Positions 6,398 to 53,351 of a stretch of 53,351 nt of DNA are shown here, piece after piece. Source of the stretch: a virus. The first letter of the stretch is position 1. Every line of letters starts with the position of its first letter. The DNA lies in the UHGV virus genome UHGV-0304279. One strand, written 5' to 3'. A model generated the notes under the pieces. That model searched no databases. It worked only from the letters and a program-made list of their open reading frames with translations, and was not told where the DNA came from. Position numbers and translations under genes: made by a program.

Positions 6398-6996
6398 TGG
6401 CTACTTTTGGCGCTTATTTACGCCTAGATAATGGCAATATTTTTGTAACGCCGGATTCTACCCCGATGTGCTTATATTCGCGGGTGGCATTAAATTCCAG
6501 CCAACAACAAACGATCGCTGTACCCAACGGTAAGCCTGTAATGGTATTCATCAAAAACACCGACGACACCGCTACTGGGCTTGCCTATCGCGCATCATCA
6601 TCTACGGTAGTGATCCCGCCTGGCAACGGGTATGCGTATATATTCAGCATCTTCCCGCCATCGCTGCCGAAATGGGGGATGGCTATCTGGAACGCTTCCG
6701 GGGAACTGGTACTGACCAACGAATCAAAAATATTAACCGACCTTGTTACAGTAGGCACGGCGGGATCGAGCGGGGGGATTTATATCGATCAAACATTATC
6801 AGGATCTTATGCGGTAGTGCCTCAGATATTGGGGGCCGCTGTAGGTATGGGTTCCGCAACAATATATACAGAATCATACTACAACGGCAGCAATACACGA
6901 ATTCGCGGGAAGATGGTTGGTAGCTTGCAACAGATTTACGGTTACATTAATCACGGGAACGCTATCACCGCCATTAAAACCGACGCCTATGATTAA
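6397..6996 (+). CDS. hypothetical protein, MATFG paralogue 2
   Basis: Start overlaps the stop of the previous gene (TAATG); N-terminal paralogy; glycine/serine-rich. Confidence 0.5.
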   Translation: MATFGAYLRLDNGNIFVTPDSTPMCLYSRVALNSSQQQTIAVPNGKPVMVFIKNTDDTATGLAYRASSSTVVIPPGNGYAYIFSIFPPSLPKWGMAIWNASGELVLTNESKILTDLVTVGTAGSSGGIYIDQTLSGSYAVVPQILGAAVGMGSATIYTESYYNGSNTRIRGKMVGSLQQIYGYINHGNAITAIKTDAYD

Positions 6997-7232
6997 TTCA
7001 GTTCCGGGCAATCCGTTTTCTTGAAGTGGTCAACGCTTACCCATTGGAAGTTAAACGGATACCCGGCCTTAACCATTTTATGACCGCCAACATCCGCGAC
7101 ACCGAAGACTGCAACCGCATATTCATTACCTCCAGCCTGATAAGTTGCCGTGCATTCACGTTTCGGCATATCAGCGCAACCAACCATACCAGCGACCATT
7201 GCAGCTATAGCGATATTTTTAAAGCCTTTCAT
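6993..7232 (-). CDS. small lipoprotein (moron), candidate superinfection-exclusion factor
   Basis: Minus-strand ORF inside the tail operon; signal peptide with lipobox-like VGC (MKGFKNIAIAAMVAGMVGCAD); RBS GGAGG upstream. Confidence 0.5.
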   Translation of the reverse strand: MKGFKNIAIAAMVAGMVGCADMPKRECTATYQAGGNEYAVAVFGVADVGGHKMVKAGYPFNFQWVSVDHFKKTDCPELN

Positions 7233-7307
7233 TGTCTTATCCTCCATTGTTCCGTCGGTTGTAGTATCCATAAACATCGTTTTCTCAACATTGATATAAA
7301 TCAATAA

Positions 7308-7362
7308 ATACATTTTGTATAAGCCAGAAATGTAACGCAGATCACAAAATGGTAAAATTACC
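7308..7362 (+). promoter_or_regulatory. restart promoter-like region upstream of the tail fibre gene
   Basis: Contains ATACATTTTGTATA and GATCACAAAATGG motif copies plus extended -10-like TGgTAAAAT at 7350-7358. Confidence 0.4.
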
Positions 7363-17782: not shown

Positions 17783-17840
17783 GTTTACAGAATGGAGTTT
17801 TTAGATCAAGACTTGAAAAATACATTTTGTGACTTGTATC
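17783..17840 (+). promoter_or_regulatory. candidate promoter/operator region upstream of the repressor gene
   Basis: Motif copies GTTTACAGAATGG (17783) and TACATTTTGTGAC (17821); -35-like TTGAAA (17811-17816) and -10-like TATCAA (17835-17840). Confidence 0.35.
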
Positions 17841-17868
17841 AAACTTTTTGAGGTTATAGGGTAGCGAC

Positions 17869-18547: not shown

Positions 18548-18626
18548 GCCCTGAAAACACCAAAACGTAAACATAAAACGTGTTTTATTATTTAAATATC
18601 AATGACATATAAAATATTTTAAAAAA

Positions 18627-18669
18627 GTATACAAAATGGATTGACTCGGTGTATCACGGGGCGTATATT
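18627..18669 (+). promoter_or_regulatory. candidate sigma70 promoter of the rightward operon with upstream motif copy
   Basis: -35 TTGACT (18641-18646), 17 bp spacer, -10 TATATT (18664-18669); motif GTATACAAAATGG immediately upstream. Confidence 0.5.
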
Positions 18670-18804
18670 TCGAGGCAAAGGAGGTAGCAAGGCAGGGGAA
18701 AGAAGGTTACTTGCTCTTTAACAATCTGGTCAGCCGCTGGAAGTGCGGCAATTAATGAAGATGATTTTTATTAAGTATCATCATGGATATAAGGAGATCA
18801 GATT

Positions 18805-19095
18805 ATGACCGTAACAATTATGTATGGCAAATGTGATAGCAAAATAAATGCCAGGGAACGCAGAAGAATAAAAAGAGAAAACGAAAGAAAATCATCACCT
18901 GCAATCAATAAAACTGACAATGTTGATAAAGCTATTCGTTTTGCAAACGTAGAAAGATGCAAACCGAATGGCATTAAAGAGCATCGCAAAGGTGCGGCAA
19001 AATGGTATGCGGAAAACGAAAGCGGCAATTACTACCACGCAACACAACCGCGTAGTCTAGGGGAAAAACCCCTGGATAAAGTACGCTACAGATAA
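18805..19095 (+). CDS. hypothetical basic protein
   Basis: RBS AAGGAG 8 nt before ATG; first gene of the rightward operon. Confidence 0.45.
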   Translation: MTVTIMYGKCDSKINARERRRIKRENERKSSPAINKTDNVDKAIRFANVERCKPNGIKEHRKGAAKWYAENESGNYYHATQPRSLGEKPLDKVRYR

Positions 19096-19244
19096 TACAA
19101 AATGTAAACTTTCAAAGGTGACATTATGGTTGTTCAGGCGCTTCAATTCAAACTGGCTGTAGCGGAAATGCTTCACGATGCCGAAATGTGGAGCACCGCG
19201 AATAAAGCTTTATATGTAGTGTTAACAGCGAGGGAGATTAAAGG

Positions 19245-26050: not shown

Positions 26051-26131
26051 GTTTACAAAATGGCGTCATTGTGTGATGAGGATCACATAATGGCGCTTTG
26101 CACCTTGTTTGCGTGTATCCGTTTTGTATAC
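26051..26131 (+). promoter_or_regulatory. intergenic regulatory region with motif copies and a CRP-like palindrome
   Basis: GTTTACAAAATGGC (26051-26064); TGTGA-N6-TCACA (26072-26087); CCGTTTTGTATAC (26119-26131) with -35-like TTGTTT and -10-like TATACT. Confidence 0.4.
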
Positions 26132-29105: not shown

Positions 29106-29403
29106 AGATCTACATTTAAACCTGAAAGGAGAATACTTTTACGCTATCCGGGCGGGAAAGAAGGTGGAGGAATACCGACTTTATAATGACTACTGGCGTA
29201 AACGCCTGGAAGGGCGGGAATATGAACGCCTGATCATTAAGCTGGGCTATCCAGCCAGCCACGAAACACACCGGATCATAAACCTGCCTTATTTCGGGTA
29301 TGAAGTGAAAACTATCACACATCCATTGTTCGGCCCTGATCCTGTAAAGGTATTCGCAATTAAGTGTGATGTGAATTGGATGTTAAGGTGGGGTGAGCAA
29401 TGA
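29095..29403 (+). CDS. hypothetical protein (possible ASCH/PUA-like)
   Basis: ORF; weak resemblance only. Confidence 0.35.
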   Translation: MASKDLHLNLKGEYFYAIRAGKKVEEYRLYNDYWRKRLEGREYERLIIKLGYPASHETHRIINLPYFGYEVKTITHPLFGPDPVKVFAIKCDVNWMLRWGEQ

Positions 29404-32358: not shown

Positions 32359-32577
32359 ATGATTTTAACGTGTAACGAGTCGGAATTAGGTTGTTTTGAG
32401 GAAGGCGCACAGTATACGGCTGAAAAACCGATGGGATTGTCGCCTAAGTTTCCGTTTATCGTCGTGACTGACACTTACGGTCACTTATGGTATGCAGAGC
32501 CGCTATGCGGTATTGGTCGTTATGTTATCCGTAGTTCTGACGGGGCGAAGAAGGTAACTCTTACGGAAGAAACATAA
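32359..32577 (+). CDS. hypothetical protein
   Basis: RBS GGGGG. Confidence 0.4.
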   Translation: MILTCNESELGCFEEGAQYTAEKPMGLSPKFPFIVVTDTYGHLWYAEPLCGIGRYVIRSSDGAKKVTLTEET

Positions 32578-32596
32578 ATGTGATCTACTTCTCAAA

Positions 32597-32640
32597 GTAT
32601 ACAAAATGGCATTGTTCCTGCAGTGCCGTTTTGTTATATA
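32597..32640 (+). promoter_or_regulatory. intergenic motif pair with promoter-like hexamers
   Basis: GTATACAAAATGGC (32597-32610), -35-like TTGTTC, CCGTTTTGTTATATA (32626-32640). Confidence 0.4.
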
Positions 32641-32674
32641 TAAGTCGAGGAAAGACGGAAGGGGAGACAAGAAA

Positions 32675-32950
32675 ATGAAACGCTGGATTAAAAAAGAAGT
32701 TGAATCTCGCTTAAACGCATTTTGGGATATGGTGGAAAAAGAAGACCCCGCGCACGCAGCAAGCCCTTATCTGAACAACATTGAATATCACTACATTGCA
32801 GCAAACAACGCGGAGTTCGAGGAAGAAGGTGGAGCAGACAAGTTCGCCCAAAGCAACGCATTCGATAACGCAAACGAAATGATGATGGCAGTAATCGCAC
32901 AGGCAGAGGAAGACTGGAGCGAAAAAACATTGGAATGGGCGCGCAAATAA
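32675..32950 (+). CDS. hypothetical protein
   Basis: RBS AAGGGGAG; an in-frame upstream ATG at 32606 lies in the motif region. Confidence 0.4.
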   Translation: MKRWIKKEVESRLNAFWDMVEKEDPAHAASPYLNNIEYHYIAANNAEFEEEGGADKFAQSNAFDNANEMMMAVIAQAEEDWSEKTLEWARK

Positions 32951-45497: not shown

Positions 45498-45962
45498 ATG
45501 CCTATCAGGGGAGTTAAACGCGTCCGTGAGAGATTAAAGCAGGAGCTAAAGGAAATCACCGATAAAAAGACGCACGAAGTTTTATGGCGCGTCGGTATGC
45601 TGGCTGGTGGCTTTGCGGCGAACATGACCCCGGTCGATACGGGTTTTTTAATTAACAGTCAATTCCAGTACATAGGAAAGACGGCAGATGGCTTACAATT
45701 ACGCCTGGGATATACGGCCCGCTATGCTGAATGGGTGCACAATATGCCAGGTACATTAAAGGGCCAGCCTCGCGAACATTTCGGCAAAACTAATAACCTG
45801 TCTGAATTCGGCCCTAAACAGGTAATTGAATTCGGCGGCGGTACTGGTAAGGGTAAATATTGGGACCCAAACGCGGAGCCGGAATTCTTGCGCAAGGCAT
45901 TCGAAGACCCTAACCACGCAGATGATATTTACAAAGAAATTGTAGAAGGTTACAAGGTATGA
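45498..45962 (+). CDS. HK97 gp10-like head-tail joining protein
   Basis: Position and weak family resemblance. Confidence 0.5.
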   Translation: MPIRGVKRVRERLKQELKEITDKKTHEVLWRVGMLAGGFAANMTPVDTGFLINSQFQYIGKTADGLQLRLGYTARYAEWVHNMPGTLKGQPREHFGKTNNLSEFGPKQVIEFGGGTGKGKYWDPNAEPEFLRKAFEDPNHADDIYKEIVEGYKV

Positions 45963-46345
45963 AACGCAGCGAAGTTTACGACGAAATAAGGGATTGGATT
46001 CAATCCCACGGATACGATGAAGGCTATATTTTGCAGGCCCGTTTCTGGAATGAGCGAAGCAATTCGAATAATGACAGATACATCGTGATCCAGCAAAACG
46101 GCGGCGCGGCTGGTGAGGAAGCAATAACCCGTGATTATTTCCGCATCCTGGTTATTTCAGCGCGTAATGATGCAAATATCAGTGAGGTGGAAGACCTTGC
46201 CGACGCCATCCGCCAAAGTATGTTAACAGAATATAAAACTGATAAAATTACACACATGAAGCCAGTTGGCGCTATTCCTGCAATGCAAACAAGAGAAGGG
46301 CGCTTTATTTTTACCGTAGCCTTTCAAACCATCATATCAAGATAA
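45959..46345 (+). CDS. tail terminator/completion protein
   Basis: Position immediately upstream of the major tail protein. Confidence 0.5.
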   Translation: MKRSEVYDEIRDWIQSHGYDEGYILQARFWNERSNSNNDRYIVIQQNGGAAGEEAITRDYFRILVISARNDANISEVEDLADAIRQSMLTEYKTDKITHMKPVGAIPAMQTREGRFIFTVAFQTIISR

Positions 46346-46358
46346 GAGGTAAATTAAC

Positions 46359-46835
46359 ATGTCTCAGACTTGCGAAAAGGGCACGTTTACAGGCCGTGAC
46401 GTTGCTGTATTCTTCGCTATCGCTTGTCCAAATGCGAAGCCGGAAGCTGAAGTGTACAAAGCGTTAGGCATGATGCGTGGTAAAACACTTTCCGTTGAAT
46501 GGGAAACCGCTGACGCCACCGCCGATAAATCAGCCGATTACACGAAAGAATCAATGGTTACTTACAAATCCGTTTCTTTCTCCGGCGACGGTGTGTCCCG
46601 CACTGAAGAAATCCATAATCAGAAAGCGCTGAAACGCCACGTAATTACACCAGGTGAAACCACTGGATCACAACCTTATGTATGGCTAAAGATCGTTTCT
46701 CCTGTAGACGTAACCGAAGGCCCATTCCTTTGCACTTCCTTTAAAGAAGAAGATCCGCACGATGATGTTTCTACCTGGTCTATTGAGTGCGAAAGCGCTG
46801 GACAGGTAACGGTAGGCGATATCCCATCGGAATAA
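46359..46835 (+). CDS. major tail protein
   Basis: 158 aa, position upstream of chaperone and tape measure; terminator downstream; RBS AAGAGG. Confidence 0.7.
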   Translation: MSQTCEKGTFTGRDVAVFFAIACPNAKPEAEVYKALGMMRGKTLSVEWETADATADKSADYTKESMVTYKSVSFSGDGVSRTEEIHNQKALKRHVITPGETTGSQPYVWLKIVSPVDVTEGPFLCTSFKEEDPHDDVSTWSIECESAGQVTVGDIPSE

Positions 46836-46853
46836 CAACTCAGATTAACAATC

Positions 46854-46877
46854 GGGGCCATTTGGCCCCTTTCTTTT
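46854..46877 (+). terminator. rho-independent terminator after the major tail gene
   Basis: GGGGCC-attt-GGCCCC followed by TTTCTTTT. Confidence 0.75.
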
Positions 46878-46889
46878 AGGGTGATAACT

Positions 46890-47567
46890 ATGATTCATGT
46901 TCGGACCGGGCAATTTGCGGCGGTGGTAGACGGTAGGCGGTATGTGTTTAATCCCTGCTTCGCCGCGATGGCAAAAATAGGCAGTGACAGAGAACTGGTC
47001 GAATATTTCGCAACAATCCACGGCGGCAAATATCCATCACGCTTGCCAGCAGACCCAGACTTACGCAATCGCATTCTGGCGCGGTGTTATGGTGAAATAG
47101 TGCAGACATCAATGCACATCCTGAAATGTTGCTCAGACGATGAAATAGGCCCGTTATTGGGCGAGTGTAGGTTTACTCCTTCGGGCAAGTTGCGACTAAA
47201 ACCAGGCTTGATGCCTACTGACGACGTTATCACGCTGGCGCAGCATTGCGTGTACCACGGCTTAATCGGTGATGGGCCGGAAGAAGATGCCGGAGAAATC
47301 CCGGAAGGGGAATATAAACCGACTTTTAACGTCCTTGAATTCGTCTATTCTGCCGTTGCTCACCTGGGCTTGTCAGAATCGGAAGCATGGAATATGACAA
47401 TGACCGGATATAGGGCCACTGTACGCGCTAAAACGCCGCCAGACGAAAGAAGCGAAAGAAGTAAGCCAAACGTTCACATAAATAAACGTGCTTATGACGA
47501 GCAAATGGAGGCCGCTAAAAAGGCGCTAAAAAGAATGGAAAATCGCAAGCAAGAAAAAGCCCGGTAG
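46890..47567 (+). CDS. tail assembly chaperone (gpG-like)
   Basis: Position immediately upstream of the tape measure region; acidic segment; Lys-rich C-terminus; no frameshift partner found. Confidence 0.55.
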   Translation: MIHVRTGQFAAVVDGRRYVFNPCFAAMAKIGSDRELVEYFATIHGGKYPSRLPADPDLRNRILARCYGEIVQTSMHILKCCSDDEIGPLLGECRFTPSGKLRLKPGLMPTDDVITLAQHCVYHGLIGDGPEEDAGEIPEGEYKPTFNVLEFVYSAVAHLGLSESEAWNMTMTGYRATVRAKTPPDERSERSKPNVHINKRAYDEQMEAAKKALKRMENRKQEKAR

Positions 47568-47582
47568 ATCCGGGCGTTTGTC

Positions 47583-47996
47583 TTATTTGATTCTAACAAT
47601 ATCAATAAAACCGTTACCTAAATCGACAATTGCGTGATTTTTTGCGCCAGCGCCGCCTTCATTAAAAATTCTTTCAGCGAAAGCAACTTTATTTGCTTTA
47701 CACTCGTTAGCTATCCTGTTTTTTATTTCGCTATTGTTTTCAAAGACTACGCTTACAGCAGCCTCGTTTACAAGGCCATAATTAAACCAACGAGCATAAA
47801 CTGGTTTACCTTCAAAATTTTTATCAATTGCCTTAAAAAGAATTGTGGGTGCGACTGGTTCTTTTTTGATCATGTCGTGATATGCGGCTACATGGTTTGC
47901 CACTTCTTCACAGTTAATGTTTATGGCCTCGTTAGCGTTCGCGTTAAATGCCAGTGCAGCAATCACAGCAAGTACCATTTTTGCTAACCGTTTCAT
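47583..47996 (-). CDS. secreted protein (moron) with N-terminal signal peptide
   Basis: MKRLAKMVLAVIAALAFNANA signal peptide; antisense to the tail operon; bidirectional hairpin at 47555-47582. Confidence 0.55.
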   Translation of the reverse strand: MKRLAKMVLAVIAALAFNANANEAININCEEVANHVAAYHDMIKKEPVAPTILFKAIDKNFEGKPVYARWFNYGLVNEAAVSVVFENNSEIKNRIANECKANKVAFAERIFNEGGAGAKNHAIVDLGNGFIDIVRIK

Positions 47997-48247
47997 AATT
48001 AACCCCTGTAATTATTCTGATTTGCTAAATGCTTCCTTTAACTTAGTTATACACGCATATTGTTTATTTTTTAAGTGCTTTTAACATTTCTTCGATAAGG
48101 TCCGCATAGCGTTCATATTCGTTGGGACGGTAGTTTACGTTTCTCATTTTCTTATCCTCTTTCACTTCCTCCGGGACATCCGGCCTTCCTGCATCTCTTC
48201 TATCTTTCTCTACATCATCTATACAAAACGGTATCGTTAAAATAAAG

Positions 48248-48288
48248 ACATTTTGTATAAAATAGATACATAGATCACATTTTGCATG
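48248..48288 (+). promoter_or_regulatory. restart promoter-like region upstream of the tape measure gene
   Basis: ACATTTTGTATAA with -10-like TATAAA, then GATCACATTTTGCATG; RBS GAGG before ATG 48299. Confidence 0.4.
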
Positions 48289-48298
48289 AGGTTAAATC

Positions 48299-50638
48299 AT
48301 GGCTACCAGTGTAGGTACAATTTATTACGAAGTTGACGCAAAAACAGGACAACTTCTTGTAGCACAACGACAGGCAGACCAAGCCTTTGACCGTATAGAG
48401 CGCGGTGCTAAACAGGCCGATCGCCAGGTAAACACACTGAAAACATCAATCAAAGCACTGACCAGGGTTATCCATCTGCTAATTGCTGCCGAGGCCGTTA
48501 GACAGTTTATGGAAATGGCAGAGCAGGCCAAAATGCTACGCGTCAAAATCAAAATGCTGACAGGCAACGCGGAATCTGCCGGGCGGGTTTTTGATGGTCT
48601 GAAAGAAATATCCAGGGAGACGGGGCAGAGCCTGAAAGATACTGGCGAATTATGGCAAGGCCTGGCTATCTCACTAAAAAACACCTCCGCTACGGAAGGG
48701 CAATTGCTTAACCTGGTTGGCACCATTCAGAAGATGGGCGCGTTAGGGGGCGCGTCAGCAGAGCAAATGTCAAACTCTATGCGCCAGTTCCGACAGTCTA
48801 TTGACGGCGGCGTACTTCGCGCAGAAGAATTCAACAGCTTGCTTGAAAATACGCCGACCATCGTACAAACAATGGCCCGCAAGATGGGATTATCAATGGG
48901 CCAGTTCCGCGCCGAAATGCTGGACGGCAAGATCACGGCAGAGAGGATGGTTAACGCAATCCAGGCGGCTACGCAGGAAACAAACGAGCAGTTCGCACAG
49001 TTGCCGCGCACATCCGGCATGGCTATCAATGAACTAAAAGTCGAGGTAATGGGTCTGGTGGAACAACTGGACGATCTTTTCGGTGTATCAGATGGCGTAG
49101 TCTCAGCTATCGACTTGATCACAAAAGGAGTTAATGGGCTAGGTGAGGGCGCTAAATTCGCTAAAACCTGCTTTGATACGCTCAAAACGGCTGGTAGCGA
49201 ATTCATCGACATGTTTGATGATGTGGCTGTGAAGGCTGGCGAGGTGGCAGAGAAGATCATCGCAATGGTGACGCCAATCAAGGCGCTAATGGATGGCTAT
49301 AAATGGATGAAAGAGATTGTCGATGAACGCAAGGAAGAACTAAACAGCAACAACGAGAAAAAATTTGGCCCTACCATCGGTAAATTCATGACGTTTAAAA
49401 ACGACATTGAAAAGGCGACCGCCGCTTATGACGAGCTTATGCAGAAACAGGCAGAAGCCAACGACGGAGCTATTACCGGATTCGATAAGCCAGTTGATAA
49501 GCCGAAAAAACAGAAAAAAGAGAAGAAATCGGAAGCTGATCGGCTTGGAGACAAGGGCATAAGCGTTTCTGATCAGTACAACAAAGACGCCGCCGCCATG
49601 CGCAAAGCGTTAGAGAACGGCAAGGCCATTGATGCTGCGTTCGCCCAGGGTAAAATCACACTCCTTGAGTACCGCGCCGCGCAAAAAGGGATCGGCAAGG
49701 AACTGAAAGAAGAATTAGCGCAGATCCCGGTAGATGAATTGCGTGATAAATGGTCGCAAATAGTTAGCCCAATGGACCAGCTAAAAGGCGAAGTTGACCC
49801 TATCCAGCAGGCGCAAAATGAATGGGCCGTCCGTAAGCAAATGCTTATCGACCTGGGCGCTACAGAAGCACAACAGAAACAGGAATTATTAGCCTATGAG
49901 CAGCAGATCCGCGATCTGAAGTGGGAACAGTGGCAGGCGCAAAGCCAGACAAACGGCCTGATCGGTGATTGCGTTAATGGCCTTAAAGGTGGCATGAGCA
50001 ATGCGCTTGTTGGCCTGCTTAACGGTACTCAATCATTGAGCGATGTTTTTGCTAACTTAGGCAGCAATATACTTGGGAATATCGGTAACAGACTTTCGGA
50101 CATAGCTGCCAACTGGATAGCAGATCAAATCATGATGGAGACACAAAGCAAAGCCACGCAGGCCAGCACAACGGCAAGCGCGGTTGCCGCTCAGGGAAGC
50201 ATTGCGGCGGCGGCGGCCCCGGCGGCGGCAGCGACAGCGGCATCAACTGGCGGTAGCTGGGCGGCGGCTGGCTCGGCGGCGCTTACTGCGATCATGTCGC
50301 TGGCAACATCCATTTTCGGCGGCGGGCGCTTTAATGGTGGTAGCGTAATTGGTGGCAATATGTACCGCGTCGGGGAACATAACAGGCCGGAGCTATTCCA
50401 GACGTCTAACGGCAACCAATACATGATCCCCGGCGAGAATGGCAGGGTTATCCCGGGGCGTGATATTGGCGGCGGCGGCGGTATCAGTATGCCTGTTTAC
50501 ATCGACATTCAAACCACAAACGGATTTAGTGACGAAGACAGCCGCAGACTTGAACAGACAATGGAACGTGTAGCCATGAAAATGATAACAAGGGAATCGC
50601 AAAGACCTGGCGGGATGTTGCAACCGCGCCGCAAATAA
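48299..50638 (+). CDS. tail tape measure protein
   Basis: 779 aa, helical N-terminal two thirds, Gly/Ala-rich C-terminal region; position. Confidence 0.85.
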   Translation: MATSVGTIYYEVDAKTGQLLVAQRQADQAFDRIERGAKQADRQVNTLKTSIKALTRVIHLLIAAEAVRQFMEMAEQAKMLRVKIKMLTGNAESAGRVFDGLKEISRETGQSLKDTGELWQGLAISLKNTSATEGQLLNLVGTIQKMGALGGASAEQMSNSMRQFRQSIDGGVLRAEEFNSLLENTPTIVQTMARKMGLSMGQFRAEMLDGKITAERMVNAIQAATQETNEQFAQLPRTSGMAINELKVEVMGLVEQLDDLFGVSDGVVSAIDLITKGVNGLGEGAKFAKTCFDTLKTAGSEFIDMFDDVAVKAGEVAEKIIAMVTPIKALMDGYKWMKEIVDERKEELNSNNEKKFGPTIGKFMTFKNDIEKATAAYDELMQKQAEANDGAITGFDKPVDKPKKQKKEKKSEADRLGDKGISVSDQYNKDAAAMRKALENGKAIDAAFAQGKITLLEYRAAQKGIGKELKEELAQIPVDELRDKWSQIVSPMDQLKGEVDPIQQAQNEWAVRKQMLIDLGATEAQQKQELLAYEQQIRDLKWEQWQAQSQTNGLIGDCVNGLKGGMSNALVGLLNGTQSLSDVFANLGSNILGNIGNRLSDIAANWIADQIMMETQSKATQASTTASAVAAQGSIAAAAAPAAAATAASTGGSWAAAGSAALTAIMSLATSIFGGGRFNGGSVIGGNMYRVGEHNRPELFQTSNGNQYMIPGENGRVIPGRDIGGGGGISMPVYIDIQTTNGFSDEDSRRLEQTMERVAMKMITRESQRPGGMLQPRRK

Positions 50639-50644
50639 CACTAA

Positions 50645-50670
50645 GGCCGCTATAAGCGGCCTTTATTTTA
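50645..50670 (+). terminator. bidirectional terminator between the tape measure gene and the antisense cassette
   Basis: GGCCGC-tataa-GCGGCC followed by TTTATTTT. Confidence 0.65.
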
Positions 50671-50955
50671 CATGGTAAGGATATAAATTAAACAGCACAG
50701 GAATGCGGGCGCGGCGAAGTCGCAAACGCTAGCCATATTCCATGCTTTTGGTAAAAAACCACCATACCACGGCATTCTTTCTCGTTTCCCTCCGCAAAAT
50801 TCCGCTATGTAACGATATTCAGCCTGTGTGTGTTCCCGTGCAAAAAAGAATGTACATCCAATCAGGCCGCCAGTGAGATAATCACCAGTAAGCAGGCCGA
50901 TAACAACCTGTATAGTCGCCGCAGCCAGTGCGTGACCAATAACGGTTAAATCCAT
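50668..50955 (-). CDS. small membrane protein (moron)
   Basis: Two or three hydrophobic segments; RBS GGGAGG. Confidence 0.5.
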   Translation of the reverse strand: MDLTVIGHALAAATIQVVIGLLTGDYLTGGLIGCTFFFAREHTQAEYRYIAEFCGGKRERMPWYGGFLPKAWNMASVCDFAAPAFLCCLIYILTM

Positions 50956-50957
50956 CG

Positions 50958-51143
50958 TTAATCCTCCCGATCGTTCTCAAATGTGCCATCTACAAATTTT
51001 TGCAGCCCGGCGATAAGTTGTGTTGCCTGCGATTTTTCAATTACTATGGTTTCAGTCCCCATAAGTTCGGTTATCCACAGCCGACCATCCTCATCAAGAT
51101 CTAACCTAACTCCGTAACATAACTCTGTTTCGTCAATAATCAT
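50958..51143 (-). CDS. hypothetical acidic protein (moron)
   Basis: 61 aa ORF coupled to the downstream membrane protein gene. Confidence 0.4.
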   Translation of the reverse strand: MIIDETELCYGVRLDLDEDGRLWITELMGTETIVIEKSQATQLIAGLQKFVDGTFENDRED

Positions 51144-51253
51144 TTTTCATCCTATAATCTTCCGTTACGTGCGACGTAACCCCCTGCCGAACATCACTAA
51201 CCAGATGTTCCAGATCTCCCGCTAGGTATATTTCTCCTCCTCCATATTCCACC

Positions 51254-51508
51254 TCACTTATGAGCGCCTTTCACTCCGCAATGACGGTTGTATTCCAGGT
51301 GATCGATAATTAACCAAATATTCAAATCTTCACTGAACAGCCGCCAGTCAGGATTGATATCGAATTTAAAGCCATAACCATCACGTAATTTTTTGGGGCG
51401 GGCTTCTTTTTTCAGGAAGGCGTTAAGCAACTTCTTGCCTTTCTTGATTACCCGTTCCTGTGCATTCTTTTGTGCTTTCAGGTTTTTTTCGATAGTTACC
51501 AGTTTCAT
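51254..51508 (-). CDS. hypothetical basic protein (moron), possible toxin-like partner
   Basis: 84 aa, Lys-rich N-terminus; RBS GGGGTGAG; lies 17 nt downstream of a 51 aa ORF. Confidence 0.45.
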   Translation of the reverse strand: MKLVTIEKNLKAQKNAQERVIKKGKKLLNAFLKKEARPKKLRDGYGFKFDINPDWRLFSEDLNIWLIIDHLEYNRHCGVKGAHK

Positions 51509-51525
51509 AACTCACCCCATCGTCC

Positions 51526-51681
51526 TTAGTTAAGCGCCCTCAGGAAGAAATCCCGGTATTCATCATCCTTCGCGTTCATCATGAATTGACCGTATTTGAA
51601 TGCGTCGTCGAAACCCTTAACAATTGCTACTTCCACTTGCTCGAATGCGTTGTTTAGCATCACTACTACATAGCTACTCAT
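51526..51681 (-). CDS. hypothetical small protein (51 aa), first gene of the antisense cassette
   Basis: MSSYVVVMLNNAFEQVEVAIVKGFDDAFKYGQFMMNAKDDEYRDFFLRALN; RBS GTGAGG. Confidence 0.4.
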   Translation of the reverse strand: MSSYVVVMLNNAFEQVEVAIVKGFDDAFKYGQFMMNAKDDEYRDFFLRALN

Positions 51682-51754: not shown

Positions 51755-51837
51755 CATATTGTAAACTAGCTATAATTCTTGTGACGAATATCTCATTTTT
51801 CGCGTAGAAGCGCGTAAAGATATATACAAAATGTAAC
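51755..51837 (+). promoter_or_regulatory. restart promoter-like region upstream of the gpM-like gene
   Basis: ATACATATTGTAAAC (51755-51769), perfect -10 TATAAT (51771-51776), ATATACAAAATGTAAC (51822-51837). Confidence 0.45.
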
Positions 51838-51851
51838 TTACAGGAGGGGGT

Positions 51852-52205
51852 ATGCCGGAAGTGTTCAGATGGACACCACAGAGAAGCTACAGCGTAAACA
51901 GTGAGCCTAACGTGTCCGTTATCAAGCTGGGCGATGGCTATGAACAGCGCCAGACAAAAGGGATTAATCCACTACTTGACAGCTATACGCTGGTCTTTAA
52001 AGGTACGAGCGCCGGATGCGGTGACGCCGGAAACGTGGCGCTCCAGGTTGACGCATTTTTAAGAGCACGTTGCGCGGTCGAGGCGTTTTACTGGACGCCA
52101 TCTACAGACGGAGTGAAAAGGCTTTTTGTATGCCGAAAGTGGAGCATGGCGAAAGACGGCCCGGTATGCACTCTGAATGCAACGTTTGAACAAGTTATCA
52201 ATTAA
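51852..52205 (+). CDS. minor tail protein M (lambda gpM-like)
   Basis: Resembles lambda gpM end to end (FRW.P, GDGY.QR, FLWTP, C.KWS, F.AEFEQV.N); RBS AGGAGGGGG. Confidence 0.8.
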   Translation: MPEVFRWTPQRSYSVNSEPNVSVIKLGDGYEQRQTKGINPLLDSYTLVFKGTSAGCGDAGNVALQVDAFLRARCAVEAFYWTPSTDGVKRLFVCRKWSMAKDGPVCTLNATFEQVIN

Positions 52206-52504: not shown

Positions 52505-52753
52505 TCATAACGCCCCCTTCAAATATGTCAATCCCTTATCAGTGACGAATGAATGGTTTACCTGGTTTTCATCCGTCATGATGATGAATAACTTTTCCTG
52601 TAGGTATTTCGCTTTTGGGTACAGCGTTAAACAGACCTGGTACAAAACCCCGCGCTCAATCAGCAAATCAATAAATTCGTGCTCATGATAACCGATAAGG
52701 CGGGCGGCCTGTTTCAACGTGTACACATAGCCACCGTGATTGCGCCGCGTCAT
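52505..52753 (-). CDS. hypothetical protein (moron; possible HTH)
   Basis: RBS AAGGTGG. Confidence 0.45.
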   Translation of the reverse strand: MTRRNHGGYVYTLKQAARLIGYHEHEFIDLLIERGVLYQVCLTLYPKAKYLQEKLFIIMTDENQVNHSFVTDKGLTYLKGAL

Positions 52754-52762
52754 ATTGCCACC

Positions 52763-53113
52763 TTATTTGCCGAACGCTCCCAGGTTGTCGATACAGAAAT
52801 CTTTTGCCGCTTTTTCGTATTCACGTTTTGCTTGCGGATCATCTGCCGGGAAACCTTTTGCGTGTATTTCACCAGGACAAGCCTGATCCATAGAGTTGGC
52901 AAAATTAACATTGAAGTTAACATTAATATCTTTCGGGTTCATATCTTCCACCTCATCTGGTATTTGCACCGGAACAACCACAAAATCACGCGCACTAGAC
53001 CAACAACGCAGCAATTCACGACCATCATCACGCGCGGCGTTGTATGTATCGAATAACCCTATGCGCTCCCATTCGCATTTATCAGTGAACACCTCTAATC
53101 TGTATTTTTGCAT
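52763..53113 (-). CDS. hypothetical protein (moron)
   Basis: ATG 53113 with RBS AAGGGTAG. Confidence 0.4.
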   Translation of the reverse strand: MQKYRLEVFTDKCEWERIGLFDTYNAARDDGRELLRCWSSARDFVVVPVQIPDEVEDMNPKDINVNFNVNFANSMDQACPGEIHAKGFPADDPQAKREYEKAAKDFCIDNLGAFGK

Positions 53114-53117
53114 AATG

Positions 53118-53297
53118 CTACCCTTCATTTATTGGCCTGATCCGGTAGCCGATAATGCGGCTATCTTTCTCCATAAGTTCAAAAGCCGTATCTATAGCAT
53201 CATCAGGATTATCGAAATCAGACGTTATGTTTTCATTTCCAGTCATGAAAACCGTAAGCCTCCATAACTTACCGCCGCCATTGCTGCATCGCGCCAT
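53118..53297 (-). CDS. hypothetical protein (moron)
   Basis: ATG 53297 with RBS GGAGGT. Confidence 0.4.
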   Translation of the reverse strand: MARCSNGGGKLWRLTVFMTGNENITSDFDNPDDAIDTAFELMEKDSRIIGYRIRPINEG

Positions 53298-53351
53298 TTT
53301 GTTTACCTCCATTCGTTTGAGTAAAATATACATATTGTAAAAACCGCGATC
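53293..53351 (+). promoter_or_regulatory. motif-containing region at the window end, continuous with positions 1-56 upstream of the gpL-like gene
   Basis: GCCATTTTGTTTAC and ATATACATATTGTAAAA here; CCATTTTGGTATG and GATCACAAAATT at 4-43. Confidence 0.35.

Follow-up and report, generated by a model that had tools for sequence, protein, structure and literature searches.

A reverse-oriented, exchangeable two-gene moron with a predicted exported product between the DUF6246 and tape-measure genes of a temperate mEpimmI coliphage

The virus genome UHGV-0304279 (53,351 nt; called the window below) carries a two-gene cassette inserted in reverse orientation between its DUF6246 and tape-measure genes. 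The first gene codes for a 27-residue peptide, the second for a 137-residue precursor with a predicted Sec signal peptide. The anatomy of the cassette is well supported: it is reverse-oriented, bounded by a terminator, low in G+C and exchangeable, and its second product is predicted to be exported. Judged by the substitution patterns in related loci, both open reading frames (ORFs) are shown to be real genes under purifying selection. Comparison of slot sequences shows the cassette as one allele of a polymorphic locus with fixed boundaries, in which unrelated, predicted envelope proteins are exchanged. We tentatively read the cassette as a prophage-expressed envelope factor that interferes with phage entry, a statement to which, taken whole, we would give a little under an even chance.

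The cassette and its two genes

The window represents a temperate Escherichia coli siphophage of the mEpimmI group, whose archetype is mEp021. The group consists of temperate, Nus-dependent, non-lambdoid coliphages (PMC11893012). The window shares genome similarity and synteny with mEp021 and its relatives, in a comparison that covers the tail region. Over the 1.6 kb around the cassette it is 90% identical to Escherichia phage MagusPhagus, and it also matches mEp554, mEp013 and mEp515. In mEp021, as in the window, the tail tube and DUF6246 genes are followed by minus-strand cargo and then by the tape-measure gene. Both cassette genes lie antisense to the flanking DUF6246 and tape-measure genes. 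The elements of the cassette and its flanks are:

48155-48159, minus strand: ribosome-binding site (RBS) GAGGA of the small ORF, 7 nt before its ATG
48064-48147, minus strand: small ORF of 27 aa, MRNVNYRPNEYERYADLIEEMLKALKK, first cassette gene; ATG at 48147-48145, stop codon ending at 48064
48003-48007, minus strand: RBS AGGGG of the 137-aa gene, read from the sequence, 6 nt upstream of the ATG
47583-47996, minus strand: gene of the 137-aa precursor
47934-47996, minus strand: coding sequence of the Sec signal peptide, MKRLAKMVLAVIAALAFNANA, from rule-based analysis of n-, h- and c-regions; cleavage predicted before N22
47559-47575, both strands: bidirectional intrinsic-terminator hairpin GCCCGG-N5-CCGGGC, which ends the cassette on the minus strand (U-tract 47551-47558) and overlaps the last codons of DUF6246, whose stop codon sits within it
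46881-47567, plus strand: DUF6246 gene, left flank (Pfam DUF6246, E 1.4e-54; phrog_791), placed after the tail tube gene, at the usual site of a siphophage tail assembly chaperone
48299-50638, plus strand: tape-measure protein gene, right flank (Pfam TMP_3, E 1e-49)

The initial annotation had described a minus-strand protein of 137 aa with a clear signal peptide, and this was borne out. In a rule-based check for the Sec/signal peptidase I (SPase I) pattern, not SignalP, the precursor has a charged n-region (MKRLAK, +3), an h-region of 11 residues, within the 7-15 expected (MVLAVIAALAF, mean Kyte-Doolittle hydropathy 2.95), and a c-region, NANA before the N of the mature part, with the small residue Ala at positions -3 and -1. 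The site (ANA before N) is of the SPase I type and no lipobox is present. All 15 of the family members compared retain the pattern despite drift of the h-region sequence. The length of the cleavage region differs by Asn-Ala units (NANA, NANANA, NANANANA) among otherwise near-identical alleles (window 47934-47951; P0003, P0004; L045), which suggests slippage in the AACGCN repeat. The predicted mature protein has 116 aa, 12.9 kDa and a pI of 6.3, and is free of hydrophobic stretches (hydropathy at most 0.70 over 19 residues). The family alignment has 65 invariant columns, those of Cys29 and Cys99 among them. The ratio of nonsynonymous to synonymous polymorphism (pN/pS) over 14 distinct alleles was lowest in the sense frame, at 0.20; of the five other frames one had 0.31 and the rest 1.3-1.7.

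A search of 5.8 billion clustered proteins returned 17 homologues, all from E. coli or its phages, which split into two subgroups with 92-97% and 70-74% identity. The mEp021 homologue is gp63, a protein of 138 aa annotated as hypothetical. No copies of the gene were found on plasmids. Searches of Pfam, PHROGs and the PADLOC defence models gave no match for the 137-aa protein or the small ORF product, NCBIfam gave sub-threshold chance matches only, and a sequence search of the PDB with the 137-aa protein gave no meaningful match. The AlphaFold2 (AF2) model of the mature domain (pLDDT 85.6, pTM 0.80) shows a five-helix bundle packed against a three-stranded sheet made of an N-terminal strand and a C-terminal hairpin. 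Foldseek comparison with viral models gave E values of at least 0.77, and the re-modelled mature domain against the PDB at least 1.5. The homology and structure search suggested by the initial annotation had this outcome: homologues exist, confined to E. coli and its phages, and neither a family nor a fold match was obtained.

In a profile search of 1.84 billion representative proteins only the family itself and two repetitive eukaryotic EF-hand proteins were matched. The match to the EF-hand repeat proteins covers residues 39-75, and Pfam confirms P0020 as an EF-hand repeat protein. Profile-profile comparison with the EF-hand (hhalign) gave a probability of 62% (E 7.5e-5, 53 columns). In the canonical EF-hand, positions 1, 3, 5 and 12 (the last a Glu) of a 12-residue loop supply the ligands, whereas the canonical calcium ligands are absent from the 137-aa family: there is no fixed residue at position 3, Pro stands at position 8, and Arg, Thr or Lys replaces the Glu of position 12. 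Pfam EF-hand models did not match the 137-aa protein even at E up to 1, and structure searches with it did not return EF-hand proteins. Membership in the EF-hand domain was rejected, since there is no Pfam match and positions 3 and 12 of the loop are not conserved ligands. Because the loop lacks calcium ligands we treat the likeness as a resemblance only, and the remote similarity, seen at the profile level, as suggestive.

For the analysis of the small ORF and of the slot we gathered 48 loci in which both flanking genes are present; their slots represent 37 distinct sequences. Most loci were fetched by an 18-nt pattern from the regulatory region, which biases the conservation of that pattern, not that of the small ORF. 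The small ORF was found in 35 of the 48 loci, as 20 distinct DNA versions coding for 27-29 residues. Variable columns were distributed over codon positions 1, 2 and 3 as 7, 2 and 15, and pN/pS was 0.068 versus 0.22-2.2 in the five other frames. One lineage carries an in-frame deletion of 3 nt (NVNY to NYY). The RBS core GGA is retained in all loci that have the small ORF, mostly as GAGGA and in one as GGGGA. A possible ORF of 26 aa at about 48069-48146 with a GAGGA RBS had been noted earlier; the gene and its RBS stand, and the extent is corrected to 27 aa at 48064-48147. The GTG start further upstream that the ORF tool gives occurs in the window alone and is not conserved.

The 27-aa peptide is hydrophilic (mean hydropathy -1.16, pI 8.1), has an amphipathic C-terminal half and no signal peptide. 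With tblastn it matched mEpimmI phages only, and neither a degenerate small-ORF pattern nor the inverted-repeat pattern described below had a match among genome species representatives. No public record examined, that of mEp021 included, annotates the small ORF. In every mEpimmI annotation examined the 27-29-aa gene was overlooked or called on the wrong strand. Plus-strand coding sequences (CDSs) named 'hypothetical protein' are annotated over the slot: mEp554_92 and mEp554_93 (L002 3784-4335) and MagusPhagus CDS0038 (L001 4312-4416). The annotated plus-strand ORF begins at an ATG that lies opposite a His codon in the small ORF; the window has Tyr there, the ATG is lost, and no such plus-strand ORF is listed in it. 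These CDS calls are probably wrong because the substitution patterns indicate the minus strand as the coding one.

One or both ORFs could in principle be chance frames in an AT-rich intergenic spacer. The region is indeed AT-rich, and public records place plus-strand ORFs here instead, but pN/pS is lowest in the proposed frames of both ORFs, and these substitution patterns already refute the idea. The conserved RBSs, the in-frame indel, and the origin of the antisense ATG in a His codon that the window lacks also speak against it. We consider chance frames virtually excluded.

The terminator reported earlier as a bidirectional hairpin at 47555-47582 was confirmed, with a stem inside those bounds that folds strongly on both strands. 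The folding energy is -17.3 kcal/mol on the minus strand (z -4.9), where UUUUUCUU comes next, and -18.2 kcal/mol on the plus strand, where the U-tract, GUUUGUCUU, is weaker. The terminator would keep the minus-strand transcript from running antisense into the tail genes. The mEpimmI group encodes a Q-like late regulator, and late transcription would therefore be expected to read through the hairpin. Neither Rfam families nor tRNAs were found in the region or elsewhere in the window. The G+C content is 0.36-0.39 over 47450-48350, versus 0.45-0.52 in the flanking tail genes. The cassette has a terminator of its own and a base composition unlike that of the neighbouring genes, as morons in the sense of Juhala/Hendrix and Cumby et al. 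have. The earlier interpretation as a secreted-protein moron is supported by the low G+C content, the inversion relative to the tail genes, the terminator, the canonical Sec signal peptide and the variability of the junction.

The cargo slot in related phages

The slot between DUF6246 and the tape-measure gene was occupied in all 48 loci (643-1319 nt) and no empty site was seen, whereas the content differs completely. At least seven unrelated cargo types were found, all on the minus strand and all bounded by the same regulatory region and terminator:

Cargo A, minus strand: the 137/138-aa protein of the window
Cargo B, minus strand: Sec-exported proteins of 116-119 aa
Cargo C, minus strand: Sec-exported protein of 165 aa
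Cargo D, minus strand: lipoprotein of 219 aa, VasI/TagO family (Pfam PF11319, E 1.2e-15)
Cargo E, minus strand: BamE-like lipoprotein of 124 aa
Cargo F, minus strand: protein of 106 aa
Cargo G, minus strand: membrane peptide of 35 aa plus a 100-aa protein with hydrophobic, probably membrane-spanning, segments

The combinations A+E, B+G, D+E and D+F were seen. Alternative cargo occurs in L005, L006, L007, L009, L012, L016, L038, L041 and L048; in L038 a 74-aa ORF takes the place of the small ORF. The 1-kb region is matched by 22 of 5,426 complete E. coli genomes, of which only 5 carry the allele of the window.

The Sec-exported cargoes B and C form two families without known relatives. Homology among the mature domains of A, B and C was rejected, as hhalign probabilities were all below 1%. 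Their signal peptides, by contrast, are almost identical. In A2 and B3 alleles the first 66 nt of the gene, which code for the signal peptide, are 91-94% identical, versus 41-44% for the next 66 nt, which places the exchange junction at the predicted cleavage site. At the far boundary, the stop codon of each cargo type is followed within a few nt by the terminator stem GCCCGG.

Loci that pair a constant 5' part with interchangeable 3' modules exist elsewhere, for example polymorphic toxin or immunity loci, and are mentioned as an analogy only. Like these, the slot has a constant 5' module (here the regulatory region, the small ORF and the signal peptide), a sharp junction, swapped 3' modules and a constant 3' boundary (here the terminator). 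Unlike these, it holds neither a toxin domain nor a partner gene, and its junction lies at a predicted signal-peptidase cleavage site. A bolder and rather improbable view would make the slot a plug-in platform for expression and export. A fixed promoter-leader, the gene of the 27-29-aa peptide and the signal peptide would then serve unrelated mature domains, recombined exactly at the cleavage site, so that periplasmic or lipoprotein effectors are shuffled; the peptide would either regulate cargo expression in a new, sequence-specific way or be a small phage effector of a new kind.

A more limited proposal is that the small ORF is a cis-acting leader, whose translation or nascent peptide sets the translation of the secreted cargo downstream. 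Wherever present, it is the first ORF regardless of cargo, and in most loci 9-13 nt (mostly 12) separate its stop codon, which adjoins the cargo RBS, from the ATG of the cargo. In the 13 loci without it the cargo is joined directly to the 5' leader; the small ORF is therefore dispensable for the cargo as such. Selection at the amino-acid level exceeds the needs of simple coupling, though nascent-peptide leaders are conserved too. The window allele, moreover, has a 67-nt spacer with a good promoter candidate between small ORF and cargo, and no known arrest motif is apparent in the peptide. A leader function is possible but on balance doubtful. The peptide itself would be cytoplasmic and may act either as a small effector or, through its sequence, as a leader for the cargo gene behind it.

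Regulatory region and neighbouring signals

Upstream of the small ORF, and between it and the 137-aa gene, the following elements were distinguished:

48272-48280, minus strand: ATGTGATCT box
48218-48261, no strand assigned: inverted repeat TTTATACAAAATG-N18-CGTTTTGTATAGA, with arms invariant in relatives
48218-48246, minus strand: weak candidate for a sigma-70 promoter that would serve both cassette genes; -35 TTTATT (48246-48241), 17-nt spacer, -10 TATAGA (48223-48218)
48046-48074, minus strand: candidate for an internal sigma-70 promoter that would serve only the 137-aa gene; -35 TTAAAA, 17-nt spacer, -10 TATAAC

Between the tape-measure ATG and the small ORF, the TGTGAT inside the box and the right arm of the inverted repeat, TTTTGTATA, are invariant in 31 of 31 distinct regulatory sequences, whereas the 18-nt spacer varies. 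The left arm lay in the pattern used to fetch most loci, and only the right arm and the BLAST-derived loci are free of this bias. The inverted repeat may serve as an operator, a UP-like element or an RNA hairpin. Of the CRP consensus, the ATGTGATCT box fits the left half, whereas agreement with the right half is poor in the window. Readings of the conserved upstream region as a CRP-dependent, UP-element or sigma-S promoter were tried by eye and none was convincing. With a position-weight matrix, the candidate at 48218-48246 scored 6.05, within the top 0.3% of window positions, and a promoter-like pair occurs at the equivalent positions of a paralogous element (32612-32640). The internal candidate scored 9.8, within the top 0.011%. 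It lies in the 67-nt spacer, which is unique to the allele type of the window and absent in other cargo types.

The regulatory arrangement, about 100 nt in length, recurs at 32568-32683 on the plus strand, ahead of a 91-aa ORF (32675-32950). The order in this paralogue is AAATGTGATCTA, TATACAAAATG, CCGTTTTGTATA, a purine-rich leader and AAGAAAATGA, and its inverted repeat forms a strong hairpin (-22.3 kcal/mol, z -5.9). Part of the arrangement recurs at 7225-7362 on the minus strand, ahead of a candidate exclusion lipoprotein gene (6993-7232, minus strand), which shares leader motifs with the cassette. The core TATACAAAATG is also found before the lipoprotein gene, before the minor tail gene at 51852 (51780-51833, plus strand), and directly upstream of the -35 of the phage early promoter (TTGACT-17-TATATT). 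Paralogous positions on the plus strand include 18626-18638 and 19092-19104. The 13-mer of the regulatory region has 11 occurrences at up to 2 mismatches, versus 3.2 expected.

CRP-core-like sites (TGTGA-N6-TCACA, at least 9 of 10 positions) number 9 in the window, versus 1.6 expected from shuffles. They lie at 23-38, 7331-7346, 17828-17843, 26072-26087, 29304-29319, 32579-32594, 51780-51795 and at two further positions. At least five (7331, 17828, 26072, 32579, 51780) are in inter-ORF gaps ahead of genes, and 26072-26087 is a perfect match. These could be CRP sites or operators of a phage regulator.

The early promoter is followed by a boxA-like TGCTCTTTAACAA with a hairpin (18641-18740, plus strand) and then by the gene of an arginine-rich protein of 96 aa (18805-19095, plus strand). 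This region matches the N-like Gp17/nutR1 system described for mEp021.

To the left of the slot, the two genes before DUF6246 are:

45959-46345: tail terminator gene
46359-46835: tail tube gene

A GC-rich hairpin, GGGGCC-N4-GGCCCC followed by TTTCTTTT, lies at 46854-46869 between the tail tube and DUF6246 genes, and may attenuate expression downstream of the abundant tube protein. Within or after DUF6246 no alternative-frame ORF longer than 42 aa was seen; slippery sites were not searched for.

Proposed role of the exported protein

The original moron, gene 15 of HK97, sits at the boundary of the tail assembly chaperone and tape-measure genes; the prophage expresses it, and it stops incoming phages from injecting their genomes, with an effect that depends on the tail of the incoming phage (PMC3594210). 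Like gene 15, the cassette would be an accessory transcription unit with its own regulatory signals in the tail operon, at the chaperone/tape-measure junction, and with a product predicted to reach the envelope. Since that moron occupies the same junction, our best guess for the cassette is a prophage-expressed envelope factor that blocks phage entry.

The mechanism proposed is as follows. A two-gene moron would have been inserted in reverse at the DUF6246/tape-measure junction of a temperate mEpimmI coliphage. Leftward transcription would start at a weak promoter near the tape-measure start, possibly also at the internal promoter, independently of the late operon, and the product would therefore be made in lysogens. 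The mature protein, predicted to be soluble, would reside in the periplasm, where Cys29 and Cys99 could form a disulfide bond. It would shield the lysogen at the envelope, most likely by hindering the delivery of the incoming phage genome, that is, by superinfection exclusion. Taken alone, this exclusion step is doubtful.

A second precedent comes from the group itself. Lpp021 and Lpp010 of mEpimmI phages are encoded in the structural gene cluster, and exclusion upon their expression has been shown experimentally (PMC11893012). Like the 137-aa protein, these and the Cor-/Llp-type lipoproteins are small, envelope-targeted and encoded in the tail or structural cluster of temperate coliphages. 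The 137-aa protein differs from them by its SPase I site and lack of a lipobox, by the absence of sequence similarity and by its locus. The cassette also differs from HK97 gene 15 in its upstream 27-aa gene and in its at least seven cargo types. Ipe, the haemolysis-inducing protein of mEp021, was considered as the identity of the 137-aa protein and rejected on size (Ipe has 72-83 aa).

Several points weigh against a role in phage entry. HK97 gp15 is a small YebO-like inner-membrane protein with bacterial YebO relatives, whereas the 137-aa protein is predicted to be soluble and Sec-exported and has no relatives beyond mEpimmI phages; between a membrane-bound and a soluble product there is some mechanistic distance. 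Upstream of the small ORF, a consensus scan of the minus strand detected no sigma-70 promoter, and the candidates there, scoring 6-7 by the position-weight matrix, are weak compared with the phage early promoter (13.9). The regulatory motif also precedes a structural gene (minor tail, 51852) and the block upstream of the lysis genes (32675), so expression may be late or phage-controlled. Finally, A-type cargo is present in both mEp021, which uses OmpA as receptor, and mEp010, which uses LamB (PMC11893012). Cargo type thus showed no link with receptor type, on only two data points, which disagree.

Some of these points fit a cassette that serves the lytic cycle. Under late or middle phage control, the protein would modulate the envelope before lysis, or keep progeny phages from adsorbing again to debris, a role proposed for Llp of T5. 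The paralogue of the upstream region ahead of the genes that precede the lysis cassette, the TATACAAAATG motif just upstream of the minor tail gene, the lack of a strong sigma-70 promoter and the Q-like late regulator of the group would all agree with such timing. The orientation of the cassette is, however, opposite to that of the late operon, and its own terminator, low G+C content and exchangeable cargo are typical of morons expressed in lysogens. The motif, moreover, precedes the candidate exclusion lipoprotein gene and abuts the early-promoter -35, so it is not a specific marker of late genes. We regard a lytic function as unlikely.

A benefit to the host unrelated to phage exclusion was also considered. 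The protein could act in the periplasm to give immunity to, or neutralise, type VI effectors, bacteriocins or lysozymes, or it could serve in colonisation or under stress. The alternative cargo includes a VasI/TagO lipoprotein (type VI secretion-associated) and a BamE-like lipoprotein, and the cargo type does not track the receptor type. A small periplasmic protein with a disulfide bond, encoded at a polymorphic locus, is also what one typically finds among immunity proteins. Yet no sequence or fold similarity to known immunity or inhibitor families was found, the family is confined to this slot of mEpimmI phages, and no partner toxin lies nearby. Such a role seems improbable, and interference with phage entry from the envelope of the lysogen is the reading that we retain.

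Other accessory units of the window lie in reverse orientation as well. The gene at 6993-7232 (minus strand), downstream of the large tail-tip gene, codes for a lipoprotein of 79 aa (MKGFKNIAIAAMVAGMVGC, then A at the start of the mature part), which is probably this phage's version of the mEpimmI Lpp exclusion lipoproteins. A 127-aa ORF given by the ORF tool is its upstream extension in the same frame. Directly after the tape-measure gene, a second reverse-oriented block (50668-51681, minus strand) contains a 95-aa protein with long hydrophobic stretches, possibly a membrane protein, a 61-aa ORF, and a ParE-like toxin at 51254-51508 (Pfam E 9e-11) preceded by a 51-aa ORF, a candidate antitoxin. 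A third block amid the tail genes (52505-53333, minus strand) codes for an 82-aa protein with a KilAC antirepressor domain and has ORFs of 121 and 71 aa. There are four minus-strand units if the lipoprotein gene is counted, which sits downstream of the tail-tip gene and not between core tail genes.

Part of this picture was known before. The 137-aa family is present in databases as 'hypothetical protein', the phage group has been published, and a secreted-protein moron at this junction is of a known kind. The conserved unannotated gene of 27-29 aa, the polymorphic slot with fixed boundaries, the signal peptide common to unrelated mature domains and the recurring regulatory module are new.

No major concept is changed by this well-defined, fairly ordinary and testable accessory locus. 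Should the protein prove to block phage entry from the periplasm, the few known exclusion mechanisms would gain a soluble periplasmic member, and the idea of the chaperone/tape-measure junction as a preferred home of exclusion genes would be strengthened as well. The slot indicates that phages can hold promoter, leader and signal peptide constant while swapping the exported domain, a simple route to diversify envelope effectors in the prophages of gut E. coli.

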